Shown here: in pieces, positions 12,490-60,497 of the stretch
How the letters are laid out: the number at the start of each line of letters is the position of its first letter
Numbering within the stretch: the first letter of the stretch is position 1
NCBI GenBank assembly: GCA_944391805.1
Contig: CALXUY010000014.1
Coordinates: 32,222 to 96,221, forward strand
Reading direction: 5' to 3'
Source: an uncultured Clostridia bacterium
Lineage (GTDB): Bacteria > Bacillota > Clostridia > Oscillospirales > CAG-272
DNA length: 64,000 bases
Made by a program: the position numbers and the translations under genes
Notes under the pieces: model-generated
What the model saw: only the letters and a program-made list of their open reading frames with translations
Told to the model about the DNA's origin: nothing
Databases searched by the model: none

Positions 12490-13530
12490 ATGAAAATCAT
12501 TGTGGATATGATGGGCGGAGACCGGGCGCCGGAGGAGACCGTAAAAGGGATCTGTCAGGCTGCTCAGGAGTTCAACGCCAGCTATATATTGGTGGGGAAC
12601 CAGCAGGAGATTGAGCGGGCTGCCGCCGAAAACCAGCTGGATATCCGGCGGTTTGATATTGTGCATACCGAGCAGGCGATCTCCATGGAGGATGACCCGC
12701 TGTGCGTGGTGCGCACGAAAACCGAATCCTCCATGGCCGTCGGCATGAAGCTGCTGGCCGAAGGGAAGGGGGACGCCTTTGTCAGCGCCGGAAATACCGG
12801 TGCGCTCTTTACCGGAGCCACGCTGATCGTGCGGAAGATCAAGGGGGTCTCCCGCGCGGGAATCGGAACGATTCTCCCCTTCCAGAATCCGGTTCTGCTG
12901 CTGGACACCGGAGCGAATGTGACGGTCACCGAGGAGAACCTCGAGCAGTTCGGGGTGATGGGAGCCGCCTATATGCGGGGAATGTACGGCATTGACCGCC
13001 CGCGCGTGGGGCTGCTCAATAACGGTGCCGAATCCTGCAAGGGGACGGCTCTGCAGCAGGCCGCCTTCCGGCTGCTCTCCGAGAACCCGGAAATCAACTT
13101 CGTGGGGAACATTGAGGGCAGCACGGCTCCGTTCGGCACCTGCGATGTGCTGGTGGCCGACGGGTTTTCGGGAAATATCTTCCTCAAATGCGTCGAAGGG
13201 GTCGGAAAGCTGCTGCTCGGCAAGCTCAAGCGGGTGCTTTACAGCACACCCGCCACCAAGCTGGCCGCGCTGACCATGAAAAAACCGCTGATGCTGATGA
13301 AAAAGGAGATGGATCCCTCCGAGCACGGCGGCGCGCCGATCCTCGGTATCTCCAGGCCGGTCATCAAGGCGCACGGCTCGTCCGATGCCAAGGCGTTCAA
13401 AAATGCGATCCGGCAGGCTATCGCTTATGCCGATTCGGACGCGATTTACGATCTGGCGCTTTGTATTCAGCGCTTCAACGAGCAGAAAAAGTCGGAGCAC
13501 GAGAGCCGGCCGGAGGAGCCGCAGGCCTGA
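12490..13530 (+). CDS. plsX: Phosphate acyltransferase PlsX
   Basis: 346 aa, MKIIVDMMGGDRAPEETVKG..., GNTGAL motif. Confidence 0.95.
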   Translation: MKIIVDMMGGDRAPEETVKGICQAAQEFNASYILVGNQQEIERAAAENQLDIRRFDIVHTEQAISMEDDPLCVVRTKTESSMAVGMKLLAEGKGDAFVSAGNTGALFTGATLIVRKIKGVSRAGIGTILPFQNPVLLLDTGANVTVTEENLEQFGVMGAAYMRGMYGIDRPRVGLLNNGAESCKGTALQQAAFRLLSENPEINFVGNIEGSTAPFGTCDVLVADGFSGNIFLKCVEGVGKLLLGKLKRVLYSTPATKLAALTMKKPLMLMKKEMDPSEHGGAPILGISRPVIKAHGSSDAKAFKNAIRQAIAYADSDAIYDLALCIQRFNEQKKSEHESRPEEPQA

Positions 13531-13610
13531 CGGGCCCGGTCCGTCGTATGGAATCGCGCCCCCCCGTAGGGTCGCAGAAAAACAAAGCGGATGAAAACAG
13601 GAAAGACACG

Positions 13611-14225
13611 ATGGAACGAAATGCCGAAAGAACCAAAGCCAATATTTTAACTGCGGCAGTGGCCGAATTCTCTGAAAAGGGATATGCCGGGGCGCGTGTG
13701 GACGCCATTGCAAAAATGGCAGGCTGTAATAAGGGAATGATTTACCAGTATTATGAGTCCAAGGAACGGCTGTATGAATCGGTGATTGCGTATGAATATC
13801 AAACGCTCTCCAAGCTGGAGGCCGAGATTATCCAGCAATATACCGATCCCGGCGAGCTGATAGACGCCATTGTGGACAAATATTTCGATTTTCTGCTCGC
13901 ACATCCGGATTTTGTGAAGATCATCATGTGGGAAAATCTCAATGAAGGACGTTCGGTCAAAGCCAGCTCGACTCTGCAGAATGTGAAAGCTCCCATTCTG
14001 GAGTGTATCCGGGAGGCAGTTCGCAAAGGCAGAGCGGACGGGATATTCAAAGAAACCGCGTCCAGCAAGGCGGTGGCTTTTGCGCTGATCACCGGGGCGT
14101 TTTCCTACTTTTCCAATTGTCACACCCTGCCTGTGATACTGAACGTCGATTTGCGGGACTCCGATTTTCTGGTTTCGCATAAGGAGATTGTCAAATCGGG
14201 GATCCGGAGCTATCTGAAAAAATAA
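13611..14225 (+). CDS. TetR/AcrR family transcriptional regulator
   Basis: ATG at 13611 gives MERNAERTKANILTAAVAEFSEKGYAGARVDAIAKMAGCNKGMIYQYYESKERLY, a TetR HTH. The track ORF from 13188 is an over-extension overlapping plsX. Confidence 0.85.
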   Translation: MERNAERTKANILTAAVAEFSEKGYAGARVDAIAKMAGCNKGMIYQYYESKERLYESVIAYEYQTLSKLEAEIIQQYTDPGELIDAIVDKYFDFLLAHPDFVKIIMWENLNEGRSVKASSTLQNVKAPILECIREAVRKGRADGIFKETASSKAVAFALITGAFSYFSNCHTLPVILNVDLRDSDFLVSHKEIVKSGIRSYLKK

Positions 14226-19300: not shown

Positions 19301-19973
19301 CCTGCAAACCGAGTGTAAGAACAAGCTGCGTGTCATCGGGCATGTGGATCTCGACGCTGTGAACAAGTATGAGGAGGTCCGCGTGCGCTATGAAAAGATG
19401 AAGGAGCAATTGGAGGATCTCGAAAAGGCCAAGCGGGAGCTGAACGACATCATCGGTCAGCTTGAGGGCGAGATGAAGACCGCCTTTGTGGATTCCTTCA
19501 ATAAAATCAACGAGAATTTTGGAAAGGTGTTCGCCGAGCTGTTCGGCGGCGGATCGGCCGAGCTTTCGCTGACCGATCCCGAGAACGTTCTCGAAAGCGG
19601 CATCGAGATCCGGGCCGCTCCTCCCGGTAAAATCATCAAAAGCCTCATGCAGCTCTCGGGCGGCGAGCAGGCGTTCATCGGTGTGGCGCTCTTCTTTGCC
19701 ATTCTGCAGGTCAATCCCACGCCGTTCTGTATTCTCGACGAGATTGAGGCCGCACTGGACGAGGTCAATGTGGAGCGTCTGGCGCAGTACATCAAGCGCT
19801 ATTCACACGGCACCCAGTTTATTATGATTACGCACCGCCGCGGAACCATGGCGGCGGCGGACCGGCTCTACGGCGTCACCATGCCGGAGCATGGCATTTC
19901 CAAGGTGCTGATGCTGAATATCAACGATATTTCCAAGAAGAAAGGAGAGGACTGGGATGGGATTTTTGGATAA
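16305..19973 (+). CDS. smc: Chromosome partition protein Smc
   Basis: GTG 16305, 9 nt after GGAGA, gives [17 protein letters not shown]... Walker [10 protein letters not shown], long coiled coils, hinge, C-terminal LSGGEQ signature and Walker [11 protein letters not shown]. Confidence 0.95.
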
Positions 19974-21603
19974 ACTGTTCGGCAGAAAGAAGCGGGAAAA
20001 GGAAGAAGCCGCCCGATTGGCGGAGGAACAGGCCCGCGCCGAAGCAGAAGCCAAAGCTTGTGCCGAGGCAGAAGCGAAAGCCAGAGCCGAGGCAGAAGCC
20101 AAGGCCGAGGCAGAAGCAAAAGCCAAAGCCGAGGCAGAAGCGAAAGCCAAGGCTGAAGCGGAAGCAAAGGCCAAAGGTGAGGCAGAAGCGAAAGCCAAAG
20201 CCGAAGCAGAGGCGAAAGCCAAGGCCGAGGCAGAAGCAAAAGCCAAGGCCGAGGCAGAGGCGAAAGCCAAAGCGGAAGCAAAGGCCAAAGCCGAGGCAGA
20301 GGCGAAAGCCAAAGCTGAGGCGGAAGCAAAAGCCAAAGCTGAGGCGGAAGCAAAAGCCAAAGCCGAGGCAGAGGCGAAAGCCAAGGCCGAGGCAGAGGCG
20401 AAAGCCAGAGCCGAAGCAGAGGCGAAAGCCAAAGCCGAAGCAGAGGCAAAGGCCAAAGCTGAGGCAGAAGCGAAAGCCAAAGCCGAGGCGGAAGCAAAGG
20501 CCAAAGCGGAAGCGGAAGCAAAGGCCAAAGCTGAGGCGGAGGCAAAAGCCAAGGCCGAAGCGGAGGCGAAAGCCAGAGCTGAAGCGGAAGCAAAGGCCAA
20601 AGCGGAAGCGGAAGCGAAGGCCAAGGCCGAGGCAGAAGAAAAAGCCCGTGCCGAAGCAGAAGCGGACAGTCCGGAAACCCGCAAAAAGGAGAAAAAATCC
20701 TTCTGGGGACGGGTGAAGGAAGGGCTGACCAAGACCAAAAACGCGTTGTTCGGTCAGATTGACGATCTGCTCAAATCCTTTGTCAAGGTAGACGAGGAGC
20801 TGCTCGAGGAGCTGGAGGAGCTGCTGATCTGCGCCGATGTAGGCGTCAATTCCGCCGAGCAGATCATCGGGGAGCTGCGCGAGCAGGTCAAGGACGGCAG
20901 ACTCAAGGAGAAGGAACAGGTCATGTCGGCTCTGCGCGGCATTCTCGAGGGAATGATCGGCCCCGGGGAGCCCTTGAAGCTGGAAACACAGCCGTCGGTG
21001 ATCCTGATCATCGGCGTCAACGGAGTGGGAAAGACCACCTCCATCGGCAAAATCTCCAACCAACTGCGCAAGCAGGGCAAAAAGGTCATTGTGGCCGCTG
21101 CCGATACCTTCCGCGCCGCCGCCATCGATCAGCTTGCCGTCTGGTGCGAGCGCGCAAAGGTCGAGCTGGTGCGCCAGAATGAGGGGAGCGACCCCGCCGC
21201 CGTGGTATTTGACGCCTGCCATGCCGCAAAGAAAAAGAACGCCGATGTGCTCATCATCGATACGGCCGGCCGGCTGCACAACAAAACCAATCTGATGAAC
21301 GAGCTGGCAAAAATCAACCGCATCATCGACCGCGAGCTGCCCGGCGCTTCCCGGGAAAATCTGCTCGTGCTGGACGCCACAACCGGGCAGAACGCCATCA
21401 TTCAGGCGAAGGAGTTCAAAAACGCCGCGGCATTGACCGGACTGATTCTGAACAAGCTGGACGGAACCGCAAAGGGCGGAATTGTCATCTCCATCCGTCA
21501 GGAGCTGAATATTCCGGTCAAGTTCATCGGCGTGGGAGAGAAAATCGACGATATGCAGGAGTTCGATCAGGCAGAGTTTGTCAAAGCACTGTTTGAGAAC
21601 TGA
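19957..21603 (+). CDS. ftsY: Signal recognition particle receptor FtsY with a repeat-expanded N-terminal domain
   Basis: C-terminal NG domain ([31 protein letters not shown]). N-terminal [12 protein letters not shown], then about 211 aa of AEAEAKAK repeats. SD AAAGGAGAGG. Overlaps the smc end by 17 nt. rnc-smc-ftsY synteny. Confidence 0.93.
20032..20664 (+). repeat. In-frame tandem repeat, about 26 units of 24 bp, encoding (AEAEAKAK)n within ftsY
   Basis: 633 bp of GCN-GAR-GCN-GAR-GCN-AAR-GCN-AAR units. Units differ mostly at synonymous third positions. Two 18-bp units and rare R/C/G substitutions occur. Confidence 0.95.
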
Positions 21604-36851: not shown

Positions 36852-36943
36852 TTTCAAACACTCCTTTCGGGTTCTTTCAGGAGCAGTATATGGCAGCGGG
36901 AGGGAAAGGGTTATGGGAATTTTTCAAAATTTCCGTCACCCGG

Positions 36944-46328: not shown

Positions 46329-47245
46329 TGGACGCGATTCAGAAGAATTTACTCGAGCAGGTTGCGGGCATTCACGAGGTGCCGCAGGGGGCATATTCCT
46401 TCCGTGTGGACGGCAGTCTTTACGATAAGCATGATTCCGAGAACATCACGATTGTCAAAAAAGAGGACAAGCCCGGCATCGATATTTATATCCGCCCCGG
46501 CACAAAGCACGAGAGCGTGCATATCCCGGTGCTGCTCTCCAAAACCGGCCTGAAGGAGCTGGTTTATAACGATTTTCACATCGGGGCCGACTGTGATGTG
46601 ACCATTGTGGCGGGCTGCGGCATTCACAACAGCGGGAGCGCCGAGAGTGAGCACAGCGGCATTCATTCTTTTTATGTCGGTAAAAACGCGAGGCTCAAGT
46701 ATATCGAGAAGCACTATGCCGAGGGAGACGGAAACGGCAGGAACATTATGAATCCCGCCACCATTGTGGTGATGGAGGAGGGGAGCTATATGGAAATGGA
46801 GACCTCCCAGATCAAGGGGGTGGACTCCACCCGCCGCTCCACCACGGCCACGCTGGGCGACCGCGCAACGCTGGTGGTACATGAAAAGATCATGACGCAC
46901 GGCGAGCAGTTTGCCGAGACCAATTTTACCGTCGAGCTGAACGGGGAGGGCTGCGGTGCGCATGTGGTGTCCCGCTCGGTGGCAAAGGACCGGAGCCGGC
47001 AGAGCTTTCTTTCCAACATCAAGGGCAACAACCGCTGCTCGGGGCATACCGAGTGCGACGCGATTATCATGGATGACGCCAGCGTCACCGCCATTCCGGA
47101 GATTGTTGCCAACCATGTGGACGCATCCCTGATTCATGAGGCGGCCATCGGAAAAATTGCCGGTGAGCAGCTCATCAAGCTGATGACGCTGGGCCTGACC
47201 GAGGAAGAGGCTGTGGAGGCCATCATCAACGGATTCCTCAAGTAA
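46325..47245 (+). CDS. SufB/SufD family Fe-S cluster assembly scaffold protein (short form)
   Basis: ATGA overlap with sufC. Beta-helix-type repeats and the C-terminus SLIHEAAIGKIAGEQLIKLMTLGLTEEEAVEAIINGFL, typical of SufB/D. Confidence 0.82.
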   Translation: MMDAIQKNLLEQVAGIHEVPQGAYSFRVDGSLYDKHDSENITIVKKEDKPGIDIYIRPGTKHESVHIPVLLSKTGLKELVYNDFHIGADCDVTIVAGCGIHNSGSAESEHSGIHSFYVGKNARLKYIEKHYAEGDGNGRNIMNPATIVVMEEGSYMEMETSQIKGVDSTRRSTTATLGDRATLVVHEKIMTHGEQFAETNFTVELNGEGCGAHVVSRSVAKDRSRQSFLSNIKGNNRCSGHTECDAIIMDDASVTAIPEIVANHVDASLIHEAAIGKIAGEQLIKLMTLGLTEEEAVEAIINGFLK

Positions 47246-47254
47246 TATGCTGTA

Positions 47255-47302
47255 TCTACAGTCTGAGGGTGGCAGAAAAATCTGCCACCCTCAGACTGTA
47301 GA
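47255..47302 (+). terminator. 22-bp perfect-stem hairpin after the sufB/D gene (terminator-like, no T-run)
   Basis: TCTACAGTCTGAGGGTGGCAGA-AAAA-TCTGCCACCCTCAGACTGTAGA. The 3' arm is continuous with the left module of the repeat family. Confidence 0.55.
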
Positions 47303-47345
47303 CCAAAGCAACGGCTTTCGTCAATTTAACTAAAGTTTTGGCCAT
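47292..47345 (+). repeat. Repeat family copy 1: solo left module
   Basis: CAGACTGTAGACCAAAGCAACGGCTTT is identical to 49208-49234 and 57065-57091. Similarity continues to about 47345 and is then lost. Confidence 0.8.
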
Positions 47346-55697: not shown

Positions 55698-56996
55698 ATG
55701 ATTTGTAAGAATCTATCGGTCAATTCGGACGGCCATCTTTGCTTTGCGGGAGCGGATACCGTCAGGCTGGCGGCCAAGTACGGAACCCCGCTCTATGTGA
55801 TGGATGAGGACCGCATCCGGGAGCGCTGCCGCACCTATCTTGGAGCCATGCGGGAGGCCTTCGGAGAAGCGGCGCTGCCGCTTTACGCCGGCAAGGCGGC
55901 GGCCTTCCGGCAGATTTACCGCGTGATGCGGGAGGAGGGAATGGGCATCGACGTCGTTTCCCCCGGGGAAATCTACGCCGCCGCTTCTGTCGGGTTCCCG
56001 ATGGAGCGCGCCTATTTTCACGGCAACAACAAAACCGACGCGGACATCGCCTATGCCATCGAGCAGGGAGTGGGTCGCTTTGTGGTGGATAACCGCGAGG
56101 AGCTGGACGCCCTGAACCGCATCGCAGGAGAAAAGCGGATCCGCCAGAAGATCCTGCTTCGGCTGACCCCTGGCATCGATCCGCACACCTATGCCGCCGT
56201 GGCCACCGGAATGGTGGATTCCAAATTCGGCGTTGCGATTGAGACCGGGCAGGCGGCCGCGCTGACCGCCTATGCGCTGGCGCTGCCGAACCTCTCTCTG
56301 GAGGGCTTCCACTGCCATGTCGGCTCGCAGGTATTCGATTCGGATGTCTACCTGCGCGCCTGTGCCATCATGCTGGAGTTTGCCGCGGCGATGAAGGCCG
56401 AGCACGGCTATGTGATGCGGGAGCTGGATCTGGGCGGCGGCTACGGCGTGCGCTATCTGGATTCCGACCCGGAGATCGACATTGCCGCCAATATCCGGCA
56501 GGTAGGGGAAGCGCTGCGCGCGCATTGTGCCGCGCTGGGGCTGCCGGTTCCGGCCGTGCGGATGGAGCCGGGGCGGAGCATTGTCGCCGACGCGGGACTG
56601 ACGCTTTACACCGTGGGCACCTTCAAGCAGATCCTGGGCTATAAAAACTATGTTTCGGTGGACGGCGGCATGACCGACAATCCGCGGTTTGCCCTCTATC
56701 GCTCCCCCTATACCGTTTATATCGCCAACCGCATGAACGAAAAGGCAGCTCTGCGCGCGTCGGTCGTCGGCAGATGCTGTGAGAGCGGGGATATTCTGCA
56801 GGAGAACGTTCCGGTTCCAGATACCGTCACGCGCGGGGATATTGCCGCCGTGCTCACCACCGGTGCGTATAACTATGCCATGTCCTCGACCTACAACCGC
56901 ATTCCGCGCCCGGCGATGGTGATGCTGCGGGATGGGGAGGACAAGCTGGTCGTCCGTCGGGAATCCTATGAGGATCTCTGCCGGAACGAACTGTAA
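55698..56996 (+). CDS. lysA: Diaminopimelate decarboxylase
   Basis: ATG 55698 is 6 nt after AAGGAG. It has YAGKAAAF (PLP Lys), DLGGGYG and CCESGD motifs. The track TTG start at 55662 overlaps dapL. Confidence 0.94.
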   Translation: MICKNLSVNSDGHLCFAGADTVRLAAKYGTPLYVMDEDRIRERCRTYLGAMREAFGEAALPLYAGKAAAFRQIYRVMREEGMGIDVVSPGEIYAAASVGFPMERAYFHGNNKTDADIAYAIEQGVGRFVVDNREELDALNRIAGEKRIRQKILLRLTPGIDPHTYAAVATGMVDSKFGVAIETGQAAALTAYALALPNLSLEGFHCHVGSQVFDSDVYLRACAIMLEFAAAMKAEHGYVMRELDLGGGYGVRYLDSDPEIDIAANIRQVGEALRAHCAALGLPVPAVRMEPGRSIVADAGLTLYTVGTFKQILGYKNYVSVDGGMTDNPRFALYRSPYTVYIANRMNEKAALRASVVGRCCESGDILQENVPVPDTVTRGDIAAVLTTGAYNYAMSSTYNRIPRPAMVMLRDGEDKLVVRRESYEDLCRNEL

Positions 56997-57023
56997 CGGC
57001 AGGCCGTTTGATACTTTGCGCCA

Positions 57024-57405
57024 GAACGCCCCTGCGCGGCAAATTGCCGCGCAGGGGCGTTCCACAGACTGTAGACCAAAGCAACGGCTTTCGTCAGTTT
57101 GATGAAAGTTTTGATCAACGTGCTGCGCACGTTTCACTTTCTTCAAAGAGTTTGAGGCGGCAAGCCGCCGGAAATTTTTGCTCCGCAAAAAGTTTCCCGG
57201 GGTCGAGGGCGCGGAGCCCTCGTCGCCCTCCGCAGAGGACGAAAATCCTATACGGCGCTTTCTTTTTGCCAAGCTTTTTCTTTGCGCCTATATGCTCAAA
57301 GAAAAAGCGGATAAACGCTTTTGTGCAATTTTGATTGAATGCGCCTTTTGTCTACAACCTGACCGAAACGCCCCTGTGCGGCAATTTGCCGCGCAGGGGC
57401 GTTCC
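57024..57405 (+). repeat. Repeat family copy 3: short complete form bracketed by a duplicated ~38-nt hairpin
   Basis: Hairpin GAACGCCCCTGCGCGGCAAATTGCCGCGCAGGGGCGTTC (57024-57062) recurs at 57365-57405 with 2 mismatches. Left module 57065-57118, right module 57278-57361 (76/84 identical to 49575-49658). Confidence 0.8.
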
Positions 57406-57428
57406 GGTGTATGTATCTGTCTGAAGGG

Positions 57429-60400
57429 TCAGTCCTCGGTCTGCCCGATCCATTCCAGCCGCGGCGCGTTCAGAACGCCTTCGTCGGCCAGCGTATAGCC
57501 GTAGGTCCAGCGGTCGCCCTCGGTGCGCCACAGAGCCGGACCGTAATAAATCGCATTGCGGTCGGCGTTGTGCACCGTGCCGAAGGTGTTGGTGCGGTTG
57601 AGGTAGGCGGTCAGCTTTATGGTGTGCTCCCCGGCGGCCAGCGCTTTTGTCTCTGCCGTATAGGGTGAGAACGCGATGAGACTGCCGTCCTCCTCCCGGT
57701 CGGCCGAAAGCTCCAGCACGGCCGCGCGGAACTGCGGCACATGCAGCCGCACGCATCCGTCGGCCGGGAGACTGACCGGCAGCAGATAGGTCAGCGTTCC
57801 GCTGTAAAAGGGCAGTCCCTGCGAGGTGATGCTGCCAAAGCCCAGCGTGCGGGGCATGGCGACAACCGTTTTTTCGCTTCCCTTGAGCCTTACGCCGAAT
57901 TCTCCGAGCAGATGACACCATTCCAGTGTGACCCGCTTTTCAAACGGCATTTCCAGCTCGAGCAGATTGTCTCCCTGCTTCAGCGGGGGCAGGGGAACGC
58001 GCGGAATCTCACGGTCCACATACCAGCCGTCGGCAATGCCCGGCACGCGCTCCCCGTTCCAGCGGATGGATACGGTTTCGGGATGCTCGATGGCCAGCGC
58101 AATGCCTGCGCATTCGCTCTCGCTTTTTACGGTCATCCGCAGTGCCAGCCTGTGGGCTGCCGGCTCCTCGGGAATGCAGTAGGGCTGTGCCGCCCGTCCG
58201 CCGCTCTCCTGCCAGCCGAGCCGGCCGCGCAGGATGTTGTCCAGACGCAATAGCTCCTCCTCCGGCTCCCACTCCCCGCCGTCGAGACAGAATTCGGCTT
58301 TGTCGAGCAGCAGTACATTGGGGTCGCCCAGCCGGAACGGCACCTCGGCGGGAACCGGGAGCGACAGGGCCTTTTTCGTTCCGGTGGCCTTCGGAGGCTG
58401 TCCGGGCGATTCTGTTTCCGCCGCGGGTGTGAGCCGGAGCAGCAGGCTGTCGTGCTCGTAGAGCTCCGCCGTACAGGATGTAAAACCGTTCCGGACAGCG
58501 GCGGAGAGCGGAGACACCGTGCCTGTCACAGTATCGTAAAGCTGTATGGTGTAGCTTCCCTTAACGTCGATGCGCAGGGAGTCTGCCTGCGGCACATCCA
58601 TACCTGCCGGAAGCACTCCCCGTGCCAGAAACAGCCACCTGTCGCCGTCAATGTCCCGCAGCTGGGTCAGAAAGCCCTCGGCCGGCGTGCCGTTCCGGTT
58701 GGAGATGCGCAGCTCACGCAGCGGCTCGAGCGCGTGAAGCAGCGCCGCGCGCGAAAAGGAGAGACTGACCGACCGGCCCGCAAGCGCCGCGGGGCGGCTG
58801 TCCGGCCGGGCGTTGACGCAGAGCGGGGCCGCACCCAGAAAGATCAGCAAGCCGCCCTGCGCGCGGAAGGCCTCCAGACGCTCCAGCGTGCTCTCGCGCA
58901 GCGTTTCGCACTCGGGAACAATCACCGCATCGTAGCGCTGACAGCCGACCGGCAGCGGATTGGCGCCGGAGGGGCAGAGGTCGGGCAGCAGCGATTCGCT
59001 GATGAAATCGAAATCGATTCCGCCGAAGGCCAGCCACGCGGTGACGTCGGCAAAATTGCGCTCGAGCTGTTCGCAGGCCACGGCATTGCGGTCGAGCGCG
59101 CCGAGGTGCAGCCAATAGCTCTCAATCGGGTGAATCACGCCCACCCGCACACAGGCCTTTCCACGGGTCAGCACGGTGTTCAGGCGCGCAAAGTGGTTTT
59201 CCACCAGAGGGTATTTCCGATACCAGCAGGACTGATACTGAATGGTCTGCGGATAGTCCCGCTTGGCCTCGCCCTTCATGGTGTAGAGCGAGAGATGAGG
59301 AACCCGCACGGTTACACCCATGGCCGCCTGCCAGTCTCCGTGGTGCTTATGCCCGCGGAAGTCGAGGTCCCACCCCAGCACGCCGTACAGCTCGCTGAGC
59401 ATTCCGCAGCGCCCATATTGGCGCACGGCTGACTGCGTCTGCTTGGCGGTGGTCAGCTCATGGTAGCCGCACAGCATGTCAATGCCGGGCAGGGTCATGC
59501 TGCGGTAAAAGCGCATGGCCTCACCAACCGTCGCCGACTGGCTTTTCAGGGTCGGCTCCTCATAGAGGTGCCCGGTAAAGAGAATGCCCGCCTCCCGGCA
59601 CCAGTTGCCGATGGTGTCCGAATAGGCAGCAACAAAGCGCTCGCACACATGGTCGTGGAAATGGTAGCGGATGACAGAGGGCCGGTCGTCCGGCAGATTC
59701 CAGAACAGCTCGGGCAGGCAGGCCACCAGATCTTCTCCGGGGTAGGCGGCGGCATAGGTGGCGGGCAGATCATCGGTCCATACCACCCGCGCGTCAGTCC
59801 GGGAGAGAGAGTAGGGAAGCGGCGCGATTTTGGCAAACTGCGGCTCGTCCGTGAAGATGGCCGGAACACTGCCCCCGAAGCGGTCGCCCAGCCGCTTTCG
59901 GTACGCTTCGTATGTACAGGCCACAAAGCACTCGACCGCGCGGGGATTGAGGGTGTCCAGATAGGCGGCGTTGTTGAAGCGCGGGCTTGGCTGCTCGACC
60001 AGCACCTGCGCGAACCACTCGTCTCCCGTCGCCGCCTCACCGCCCGAAAGCAGGCGATAGGACGCCAACGTGCCGTCGGCATGGAGCGAGACGTCATAGC
60101 GCCCCACCTCATATGCGCGCCCGGGCACGGGAGCGGCCGAGAGCACCAGCCAGCGCCGGCGGTATTCGGGGTGCTCCCGTGTGACCAGCCCCCCGGCAAA
60201 GCCGGAGGGCCAGCGGTCCTCGTCATACAGCCACGCCAGCATGTCCCGCCGCTCGGCCTCATCGGCGCAGGCTTCAACCAGATCGAGAAATTCTTCGCTC
60301 ATATAGGGGGTGGAAAGCCCCGAGCGAACGTGCATGTGAAAGCCTCCAAAGCCCATTTCCCGAAAGCAGCCGATCTGCCGGAGCAGCTCCTCGCGGTCGA

Positions 60401-60497
60401 GCGCTCCGTTCCATGCCCAGAAGGGAGCGCCGCGGTACTCCTTGCCCGGGCTTCGGAATTCTTCGTCGGTAAACGGCTTGGTCTGATCGTACAGCAT
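57429..60497 (-). CDS. Large glycoside-hydrolase-like protein without a signal peptide (family not assignable by eye)
   Basis: 1022-aa ORF with SD GGAGG 5 nt upstream. The N-terminus RGAPFWAWNGALDREELLRQIGCFREMGFGGFHMHVRSGL is typical of a large family annotated as glycosyl hydrolases. The C-terminal part is beta-rich. Confidence 0.6.
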   Translation of the reverse strand: MLYDQTKPFTDEEFRSPGKEYRGAPFWAWNGALDREELLRQIGCFREMGFGGFHMHVRSGLSTPYMSEEFLDLVEACADEAERRDMLAWLYDEDRWPSGFAGGLVTREHPEYRRRWLVLSAAPVPGRAYEVGRYDVSLHADGTLASYRLLSGGEAATGDEWFAQVLVEQPSPRFNNAAYLDTLNPRAVECFVACTYEAYRKRLGDRFGGSVPAIFTDEPQFAKIAPLPYSLSRTDARVVWTDDLPATYAAAYPGEDLVACLPELFWNLPDDRPSVIRYHFHDHVCERFVAAYSDTIGNWCREAGILFTGHLYEEPTLKSQSATVGEAMRFYRSMTLPGIDMLCGYHELTTAKQTQSAVRQYGRCGMLSELYGVLGWDLDFRGHKHHGDWQAAMGVTVRVPHLSLYTMKGEAKRDYPQTIQYQSCWYRKYPLVENHFARLNTVLTRGKACVRVGVIHPIESYWLHLGALDRNAVACEQLERNFADVTAWLAFGGIDFDFISESLLPDLCPSGANPLPVGCQRYDAVIVPECETLRESTLERLEAFRAQGGLLIFLGAAPLCVNARPDSRPAALAGRSVSLSFSRAALLHALEPLRELRISNRNGTPAEGFLTQLRDIDGDRWLFLARGVLPAGMDVPQADSLRIDVKGSYTIQLYDTVTGTVSPLSAAVRNGFTSCTAELYEHDSLLLRLTPAAETESPGQPPKATGTKKALSLPVPAEVPFRLGDPNVLLLDKAEFCLDGGEWEPEEELLRLDNILRGRLGWQESGGRAAQPYCIPEEPAAHRLALRMTVKSESECAGIALAIEHPETVSIRWNGERVPGIADGWYVDREIPRVPLPPLKQGDNLLELEMPFEKRVTLEWCHLLGEFGVRLKGSEKTVVAMPRTLGFGSITSQGLPFYSGTLTYLLPVSLPADGCVRLHVPQFRAAVLELSADREEDGSLIAFSPYTAETKALAAGEHTIKLTAYLNRTNTFGTVHNADRNAIYYGPALWRTEGDRWTYGYTLADEGVLNAPRLEWIGQTED

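Follow-up and report, generated by a model that had tools for sequence, protein, structure and literature searches.

The window (the whole 64,000-nt stretch of DNA analysed here) holds, in the spacer between lysA and a convergent gene for a glycoside hydrolase (GH)-like protein, the same palindrome twice, with a short element between the two copies (order: palindrome, element, palindrome). The question raised by this locus is whether the element came to lie between two hairpins or whether its insertion made two hairpins out of one. A repeat search aligned positions 57025–57063 with 57367–57405 as a direct repeat of 39 nt with two mismatches (95% identity), one of them a C/T difference that creates a G-T pair and the other an A/T difference at the loop centre. 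A sequence-only reading of this DNA had pointed out a repeated hairpin around a 297-bp element, and this is borne out, the nature of the two mismatches included, the element coordinates being exact and those of the hairpins off by 1–2 nt. The left palindrome (57020–57064; core 57025–57063, AACGCCCCTGCGCGGCAAATTGCCGCGCAGGGGCGTTCC; arms 57024–57042 and 57044–57062, 100% complementary) begins 24 nt past the lysA stop codon (56994–56996), and the right one (57362–57406; core 57367–57405; arms 57362–57384 and 57386–57408, 91% complementary) ends 22 nt short of the end of the GH ORF at 57429. Each palindrome is near-perfect, 19-nt arms being 100% and 23-nt arms 91% complementary.

Extended to the element ends (57020–57064 versus 57362–57406), the duplication covers 45 nt with six mismatches and matches poorly in the outer 3–5 nt. 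With six of 45 positions differing at an old insertion, the exact edges of the duplication, and the positions of the cuts, are uncertain. The palindrome centre (57043 and 57385) flips between A and T, reading AAATT on the left and AATTT on the right in the window and the reverse in a related strain (L164, described below), in which the C/T stem variant is on the opposite arm of the left palindrome. The pattern points to inversion of the loop or to conversion between the two palindromes. When the stretch 57018–57410 was folded as single-stranded DNA, the flanking palindromes paired with each other into a stem of about 40 bp enclosing the element (z = −12.5); as modelled, the two could in principle serve as inverted repeats besides direct repeats.

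The hairpin had also been described as terminator-like. At this locus there is no T-run on either strand, and a terminator scan of 56900–57500 called neither palindrome. T-runs are present at several other targets of the family to which the element belongs. That each of the convergent genes has its own copy of the hairpin is correct; as a terminator that hairpin is putative. Two features of the neighbouring genes may be recorded here. A lysine riboswitch (75 bits; 51685–51855, + strand) lies ahead of the dapA-dapB-dapF-aminotransferase-lysA operon, which runs up to the hairpin. The GH-like protein (57429–60497, − strand; 1022 aa) is without a precomputed Pfam match of its own, PF17132 being found on about half of its listed homologs, and no homolog on record falls between 76% and 97% identity.

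The element (57065–57361, + strand; 297 bp) is the third copy of its family in the window and will be called copy 3. Of the 11 left junctions that read AGACTG, 10 have a C in front of it, and the element ends were accordingly placed at CAG...CTG. The left terminal inverted repeat CAGACTGTAGACCAAAG (57065–57081, + strand) is identical in copies 1–3 of the window, and the right one, CAGGTTGTAGACAAAAG as read on the minus strand (57345–57361), is common to copy 2 (49642–49658); the right end of copy 3 reads CTTTTGTCTACAACCTG on the top strand. The two terminal repeats are identical at 14 of 17 positions (three mismatches) and are kept in all copies, and any full-length relative would be bounded by the family end sequences CAGACTGTAGAC...GTCTACAACCTG. 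The internal hairpins reported earlier for copy 3 are all present, namely AACGTGC-TGC-GCACGTT at 57117–57133 and, within 57156–57223, GGCGGC-AA-GCCGCC (57156–57169), TTTTTGC-TCC-GCAAAAA (57175–57191) and CGAGGGC-GCGGA-GCCCTCG (57205–57223). They are followed by the hairpin of the conserved right module (57273–57308; 18-nt arms, 89% complementary), the module as a whole showing 91% identity to that of copy 2. More generally, the element interior consists of short hairpins in an array, and copies differ in how many they have.

A search with the family left end (30-mer, at most three mismatches) gave three occurrences in the window, starting at 47292, 49208 and 57065, against none expected from 100 shuffles; the right end of copy 3 was also found at 49658. 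Copy 2 (49208–49658, + strand; 451 bp) is complete. Copy 1 is a truncated, solo left end of 53 nt (47292–47344, + strand) at a synteny breakpoint beside tRNA-Pro, and is adjoined by the hairpin CTGAGGGTGGCAGA-AAAA-TCTGCCACCCTC(AG) at 47263–47291, 17 nt past the stop codon of the upstream gene. Element lengths in the family range from 297 to 489 bp, with three copies in the 64 kb and further copies in more than ten gut metagenome contigs. The 155-aa ORF of copy 2, a spurious translation, matched only other copies of the element and yielded ten more of them, all on short contigs; with this one ORF searched, no homolog-bearing ORF was found in the element family. Copy 3 is a non-autonomous transposon (MITE), in agreement with its earlier description as a complete short mobile element. 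Rfam gave no match over the elements, which rules out a known structured RNA or group II intron, and over 46500–58000 it returned nothing beyond the lysine riboswitch, a tRNA and sub-threshold noise. End-motif matches at window position 36942 and in another locus (L027) were attributed to chance.

Several side observations concern the family and the window at large. In a roe-deer Clostridia MAG (L020, 9790–9915), a stretch just upstream of its lysA is 79% identical to the element core; no element ends are recognisable in it, and it could represent a diverged relative or a shared hairpin module. Copies also occur at synteny breakpoints: copy 1 lies beside tRNA-Pro in a stretch (47246–48184) not shared with L164 (reverse strand, 1–1045), and the locus L178 (11590–11700) breaks within the element at the equivalent of window position 57317, after which an unrelated gene of 287 aa follows. 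Elsewhere in the window, a tandem array with a 12-nt period (19924–20655; 35 overlapping 300-nt copies) lies within the ORF 19957–21603.

Whether the second hairpin is a product of insertion can be judged most directly where the same site is available with and without the element. One such site is that of copy 2. L164 is a related strain (GCA_964318585.1) whose GH protein differs at 21 of 1022 residues, and it aligns with the window at 95–98% identity on both sides of copy 2, the element itself being absent. At this empty site the two megablast blocks overlap by 24 nt, and a single 22-nt sequence, CAAAAAGCCTGCTTGGCCTTTG, is present, whereas in the window the repeat is found on both sides of copy 2: on the right (49659–49680) as CAAAAAGCCTGCTTGGCCTTTG, identical to the single copy of L164, and on the left (49187–49207) in a decayed form, CAAAAAACTGCTTGGCTTTTG. 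The claim that copy 2 is bracketed by a duplicated repeat of its own, different from that of copy 3, is thus confirmed (copies of 21 and 22 nt), although what this repeat forms is only a weak, imperfect and bulged hairpin. Judged from the two aligned assemblies, copy 2 is a strain-level insertion polymorphism, and the comparison shows that at least one copy has moved recently enough to differ between strains.

The second case is a nested insertion. On a human-gut contig (L006), a 321-bp copy lies within another copy of the family and has the same 19-nt sequence, CAACGTGCTGCGCACGTTT, exactly repeated on both flanks. This sequence corresponds to the stem-loop AACGTGC-TGC-GCACGTT plus one base on each side, that is, to the counterpart of one of the internal hairpins of copy 3. 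It is single in the uninterrupted copy 3 (57116–57134), and a near-identical version is single in a further contig (L090). Taken together, the two cases show that one existing stem-loop becomes two on insertion, one on each side of the element. Larger hairpins go with longer duplications, and these measure 19, 22 and about 40–45 bp, each being the local stem-loop plus 0–3 nt. Copies inserted into internal hairpins of other copies, in nested or mosaic arrangements, are seen in L006 (minus strand, 1152–1560), L091 (180–500) and L092 (540–610).

For copy 3 itself the comparison has to be indirect. The complete locus is found again in independent assemblies (L001/L158 and L159) and, as a longer version, in L164. 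Five shorter contigs, from additional samples, agree with it along their whole length and stop inside the element. As it recurs in independent assemblies, the arrangement cannot be put down to faulty assembly. For copy 3 no empty site turned up: wherever the GH protein is 97% identical or more, the strain has the element or a remnant of it, and all contigs with an identical LysA or GH protein have the element or end inside it. The remnant in L178 consists of only the last ~45 nt of the element and the right hairpin, followed by an unrelated gene. In the closest species genome (LysA 87% identical) the lysA–GH region is not syntenic and offers no empty-site comparator, and a sister species, whose GH protein is 76% identical, differs in the neighbouring gene and in the hairpin and is not comparable. 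With no empty site among the sampled strains, the insertion of copy 3 is old and fixed. The L164 orthologue of copy 3 (13155–13645, within the locus 13040–13720) has both hairpins and measures ~489 bp, against 297 bp in the window, so that there has been gain or loss of internal hairpin modules after the insertion. The hairpin pair around copy 3 would likewise have arisen by duplication, on the basis of family behaviour rather than of direct comparison.

It could be argued instead that the two hairpins pre-existed, or arose by recombination between terminators, and that the element merely sits between them. For copy 3 the lack of an empty-site comparator is compatible with this, as are the differences between its hairpin copies (2 of 39 or 6 of 45 positions). 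The empty site of copy 2, however, has one copy of the repeat, and the hairpin that L006 has twice occurs once in uninterrupted copies. Moreover, hairpins abut both types of junction (left and right) across unrelated loci. To quantify this, junctions were scored for a perfect stem with a 3–8-nt loop ending 0–3 nt from the element, a count that was used because a minimum-free-energy hairpin statistic is too permissive in G+C-rich DNA. The count covered 21 junctions, taken from the window and from nine other loci. Such a stem of at least 5 bp was present at 15 of them, compared with 3.6% of 20,000 random window positions, and a stem of at least 8 bp at nine, compared with 0.24% of the random positions. 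We therefore regard pre-existing hairpins as very improbable. Of the two mechanisms put forward by the sequence-only reading, hairpin-directed insertion is supported by the L164 empty site, the L006 nesting and the junction counts, whereas recombination between terminators is refuted by an empty site that has one copy.

The junction hairpins have no sequence in common. Both their sequence and their length change between loci; the element ends, in contrast, are conserved. The family chooses DNA stem-loops irrespective of their sequence, mostly hairpins that follow genes. The same pattern bears on a further explanation, in which the hairpins belong to the element or represent the core of a site-specific recombinase (Xer/dif-like, integron attC-like or phage att-like, attL and attR sharing a palindromic core). 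Palindromic flanks in direct repeat do resemble recombination sites, and the single-strand fold pairs the two flanking palindromes of copy 3 into one long stem. But flanking hairpins that differ fully between loci while the element ends stay the same are not what a recombination core would give; in addition, the empty site retains its hairpin and there is no recombinase nearby. A recombinase core is, in our judgement, no more credible than hairpins that were there beforehand.

Not every full copy has matching flanks. The proposal that each of them is bracketed by a duplicated hairpin fails for four short metagenome contigs (L089, L090, L091 and L092) that span the whole element and in which the left and right hairpins are unrelated. 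One flank of L091 and one of L092 are formed by another copy's interior, and the other flank of L091 resembles the outer flank of L006. These contigs may be assembly chimeras or recombinants: mismatched flanks fit nested insertion followed by recombination between copies, and they fit equally well de Bruijn-graph assembly hopping between repeat copies. Every mismatched flank still has a hairpin against the element. A hairpin at both types of junction is predicted by the duplication model and not by insertion next to one hairpin.

Overall, the explanation that best accounts for the data, and in which we have good confidence, is the insertion of a MITE that duplicates a target stem-loop and is mobilised in trans. 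In this model, a transposase encoded elsewhere in the genome would move the MITE. The target palindrome would be extruded as a cruciform, or be otherwise recognised as a dyad, and a transposase presumed to be of the DDE type would join both 3′ ends of the element to the two strands at the 5′ feet of the cruciform. In linear sequence the phosphates at the 5′ feet are a whole hairpin apart, but at the four-way junction they would be close, so that an ordinary short stagger at the junction would allow a duplication of any length. Host gap repair would then copy the stem-loop on each side. As lysA and the convergent hydrolase gene each retain a hairpin, 3′-end formation would likely be little disturbed.

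The transposase was sought through its expected ends and by protein similarity. The window, ~180 fetched loci, plasmid and phage collections and viral contigs yielded no transposase with matching ends. An exact 21-mer of the left end had no match in 185,579 species genomes, and blastn against plasmids and phages found no element. In viral contigs a degenerate end pattern gave 64 single matches, about the chance estimate, none with a second end or extended similarity. By tblastn, an IS30 transposase gave nothing in the window or the loci, and an IS1272 transposase matched only in plasmid loci that had been fetched as references; IS30-like transposases of gut phages had no matching ends. A DDE transposase of either the IS1182 or the IS30 (IS1630-like) type is the probable enzyme, with a slight lean towards IS1182. 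The tips of five IS1182-family members (TGAGTCTGGGACATAAA, GAGGCTGTGACATAAG, GGGACTGTGACATAAG, GGGGCTGTCGCAC and GAGGCTGTCTCAAAAT) resemble CAGACTGTAGACCAAAG by eye, the motif common to them and to the MITE being (G)AG.CTGT..AC (also AG.CTGT..AC..AA). IS30 has TGTAGATTCAAT at its tip and ISLpl1 has GGTAGATTG, whereas the TGTAGAC of the MITE sits 5 nt in from the tip. In a shuffle test, 200–290 of 2000 shuffles were at least as good as the observed similarity to IS1182 ends, which is not significant; neither is the similarity to IS30 ends.

The duplication may also be real and its agent a transposase family not yet tied to such behaviour, neither IS30 nor IS1182, or a new family altogether. No partner has been found, the end similarity to both candidate families is not significant, and the CAG...CTG tips, lying 5 nt outside the TGTAGA motif, do not fit IS30 tips. 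On the other hand, sequence-independent targeting of hairpins has been reported for no families other than IS30 and IS1182, and the MITE tips look like the AG.CTGT..AC..AA of the IS1182 family, which makes an agent outside both families unlikely, if still worth bearing in mind. A related conjecture, to which we give a similarly low weight, is that the enzyme reads DNA shape alone, i.e. the base of an extruded cruciform, and belongs either to a family not so far linked with such activity or to a lineage of the IS1182 type in which duplication of the stem-loop has replaced its deletion. If so, it would be a natural, sequence-independent finder of terminators and hairpins; its miniature derivatives would spread while sparing the 3′ hairpins of both neighbouring genes, and the elements would build their own landing pads, the interior hairpin array capturing further copies.

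An enzyme of quite another kind could be imagined as well, the MITE then being a derivative of IS200/IS605 or a REP/RAYT-type element that recognises single-strand hairpins and is moved by a Y1/HUH transposase. Such enzymes do recognise DNA hairpins, and in L089 (144–605) an IS200-like Y1_Tnp gene lies ~100 nt from a copy. This gene has its own end hairpins, however, and the association is seen at one locus only; the proximity is probably a coincidence. The MITE, moreover, has terminal inverted repeats and target duplications, and its flanking hairpins come from the target. IS200/IS605 elements are without inverted-repeat ends or target duplication and insert beside a fixed sequence of 4–5 nt. 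A Y1/HUH enzyme as the agent thus seems scarcely more plausible than a recombinase, and we retain trans-mobilisation by a DDE transposase as the preferred reading.

To our knowledge, the mechanism of whole-stem-loop duplication has never been worked out. The MITE family provides natural evidence for the model of attack at the feet of a cruciform, in which the duplication outcome had earlier been only a hypothetical pathway. Very few elements are on record as duplicating a whole stem-loop; in the literature that we reached it is essentially IS1630 (1999). To this the family adds a non-autonomous example outside the Mollicutes, with duplications that track hairpin size from 19 to ~45 bp, strain polymorphism and repeated self-nesting. 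In practice, elements of this sort interrupt short-read assemblies at the ends of genes, are located at rearrangement breakpoints in the species and can be mistaken for paired terminators.

The sequence-only reading had regarded the insertion mechanism as not described; this cannot be upheld, since IS1630, IS1272/TnSha1 and the cruciform model precede it. The insertion mode is already known, though rare, and what is new is the miniature, non-autonomous form in an uncultured gut Clostridia bacterium. Some of the better-known systems share single features with the MITE. CRISPR Cas1–Cas2 and casposons make two strand transfers that flank an often palindromic repeat, which gap repair then duplicates, but Cas1–Cas2 relies on a Cas1 integrase, on a repeat and leader that are sequence-specific and on a duplication of fixed length, none of which applies to the MITE. 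Bacterial class C group II introns home just after the stem-loops of intrinsic terminators; unlike the MITE, which has no Rfam match, they are ~2-kb ribozyme retroelements without inverted-repeat ends or target duplication. Unusually long target duplications are also made by the IS4-type elements IS1549 and IS1634 and by the IS1202 family, and these are not tied to a stem-loop; groups of IS1202 have fixed duplication lengths, and the dif-targeting sub-group duplicates only ~5 bp. In a 2024 review of prokaryotic MITEs, a term search found no passage on a stem-loop-duplicating MITE.

The closest precedent is IS1630, an IS30-family element of Mycoplasma fermentans, which, going by the title of its description, uses inverted repeats as targets and duplicates them (Calcutt, Lavrrar & Wise, J Bacteriol 1999). 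Its duplications are long and variable, given as 19–26 bp (PMC2853133) and 16–26 bp (PMC3317919) in two later papers. ISMhom-1 of M. hominis has been reported to behave like IS1630. The targets of IS1630 are reportedly the terminators of neighbouring genes. As in the MITE (19, 22 and ~40–45 bp), the whole inverted repeat is duplicated and the length varies. In contrast, IS1630 is autonomous and occurs in Mollicutes, with 1.4 kb, an IS30-type transposase and 27-bp inverted repeats, whereas the MITE measures 0.3–0.5 kb, has no transposase, resides in an uncultured gut Clostridia bacterium and makes duplications of up to ~45 bp, the longest of this type in the literature that we reached. Its ends share with IS30 only TGTAGA, set 5 nt in from the tip.

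The second precedent is the IS1182 family. IS1272 and TnSha1 of staphylococci target hairpins, often confirmed terminators, without primary-sequence specificity (PMC4923244, PMC5678879), and the MITE shares with them stem-loop targets without sequence specificity. The tips look similar (TGAGTCTGGGACATAAA and GAGGCTGTGACATAAG next to CAGACTGTAGACCAAAG), a likeness that is not statistically significant. A further variation was seen in an IS1182-family element on a Phocaeicola plasmid (OY726042.1; L185, 448–2271), which has on each side one arm of a 15-nt palindrome (ATAAAAATATGAAAA and TTTTCATATTTTTAT); it looks as if the element had inserted in the middle of a stem-loop, giving a third outcome next to deletion and duplication. 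IS1272 attacks the 3′ feet, deletes the stem-loop and leaves no duplication, and a hypothetical attack at the 5′ feet of the cruciform, leading to the entire stem-loop being duplicated, was drawn alongside it as pathway b (Wan et al., 2017, PMC5678879, Fig. 13). Thus, where IS1272 deletes the stem-loop that it targets, the MITE duplicates it, which is the outcome of pathway b.
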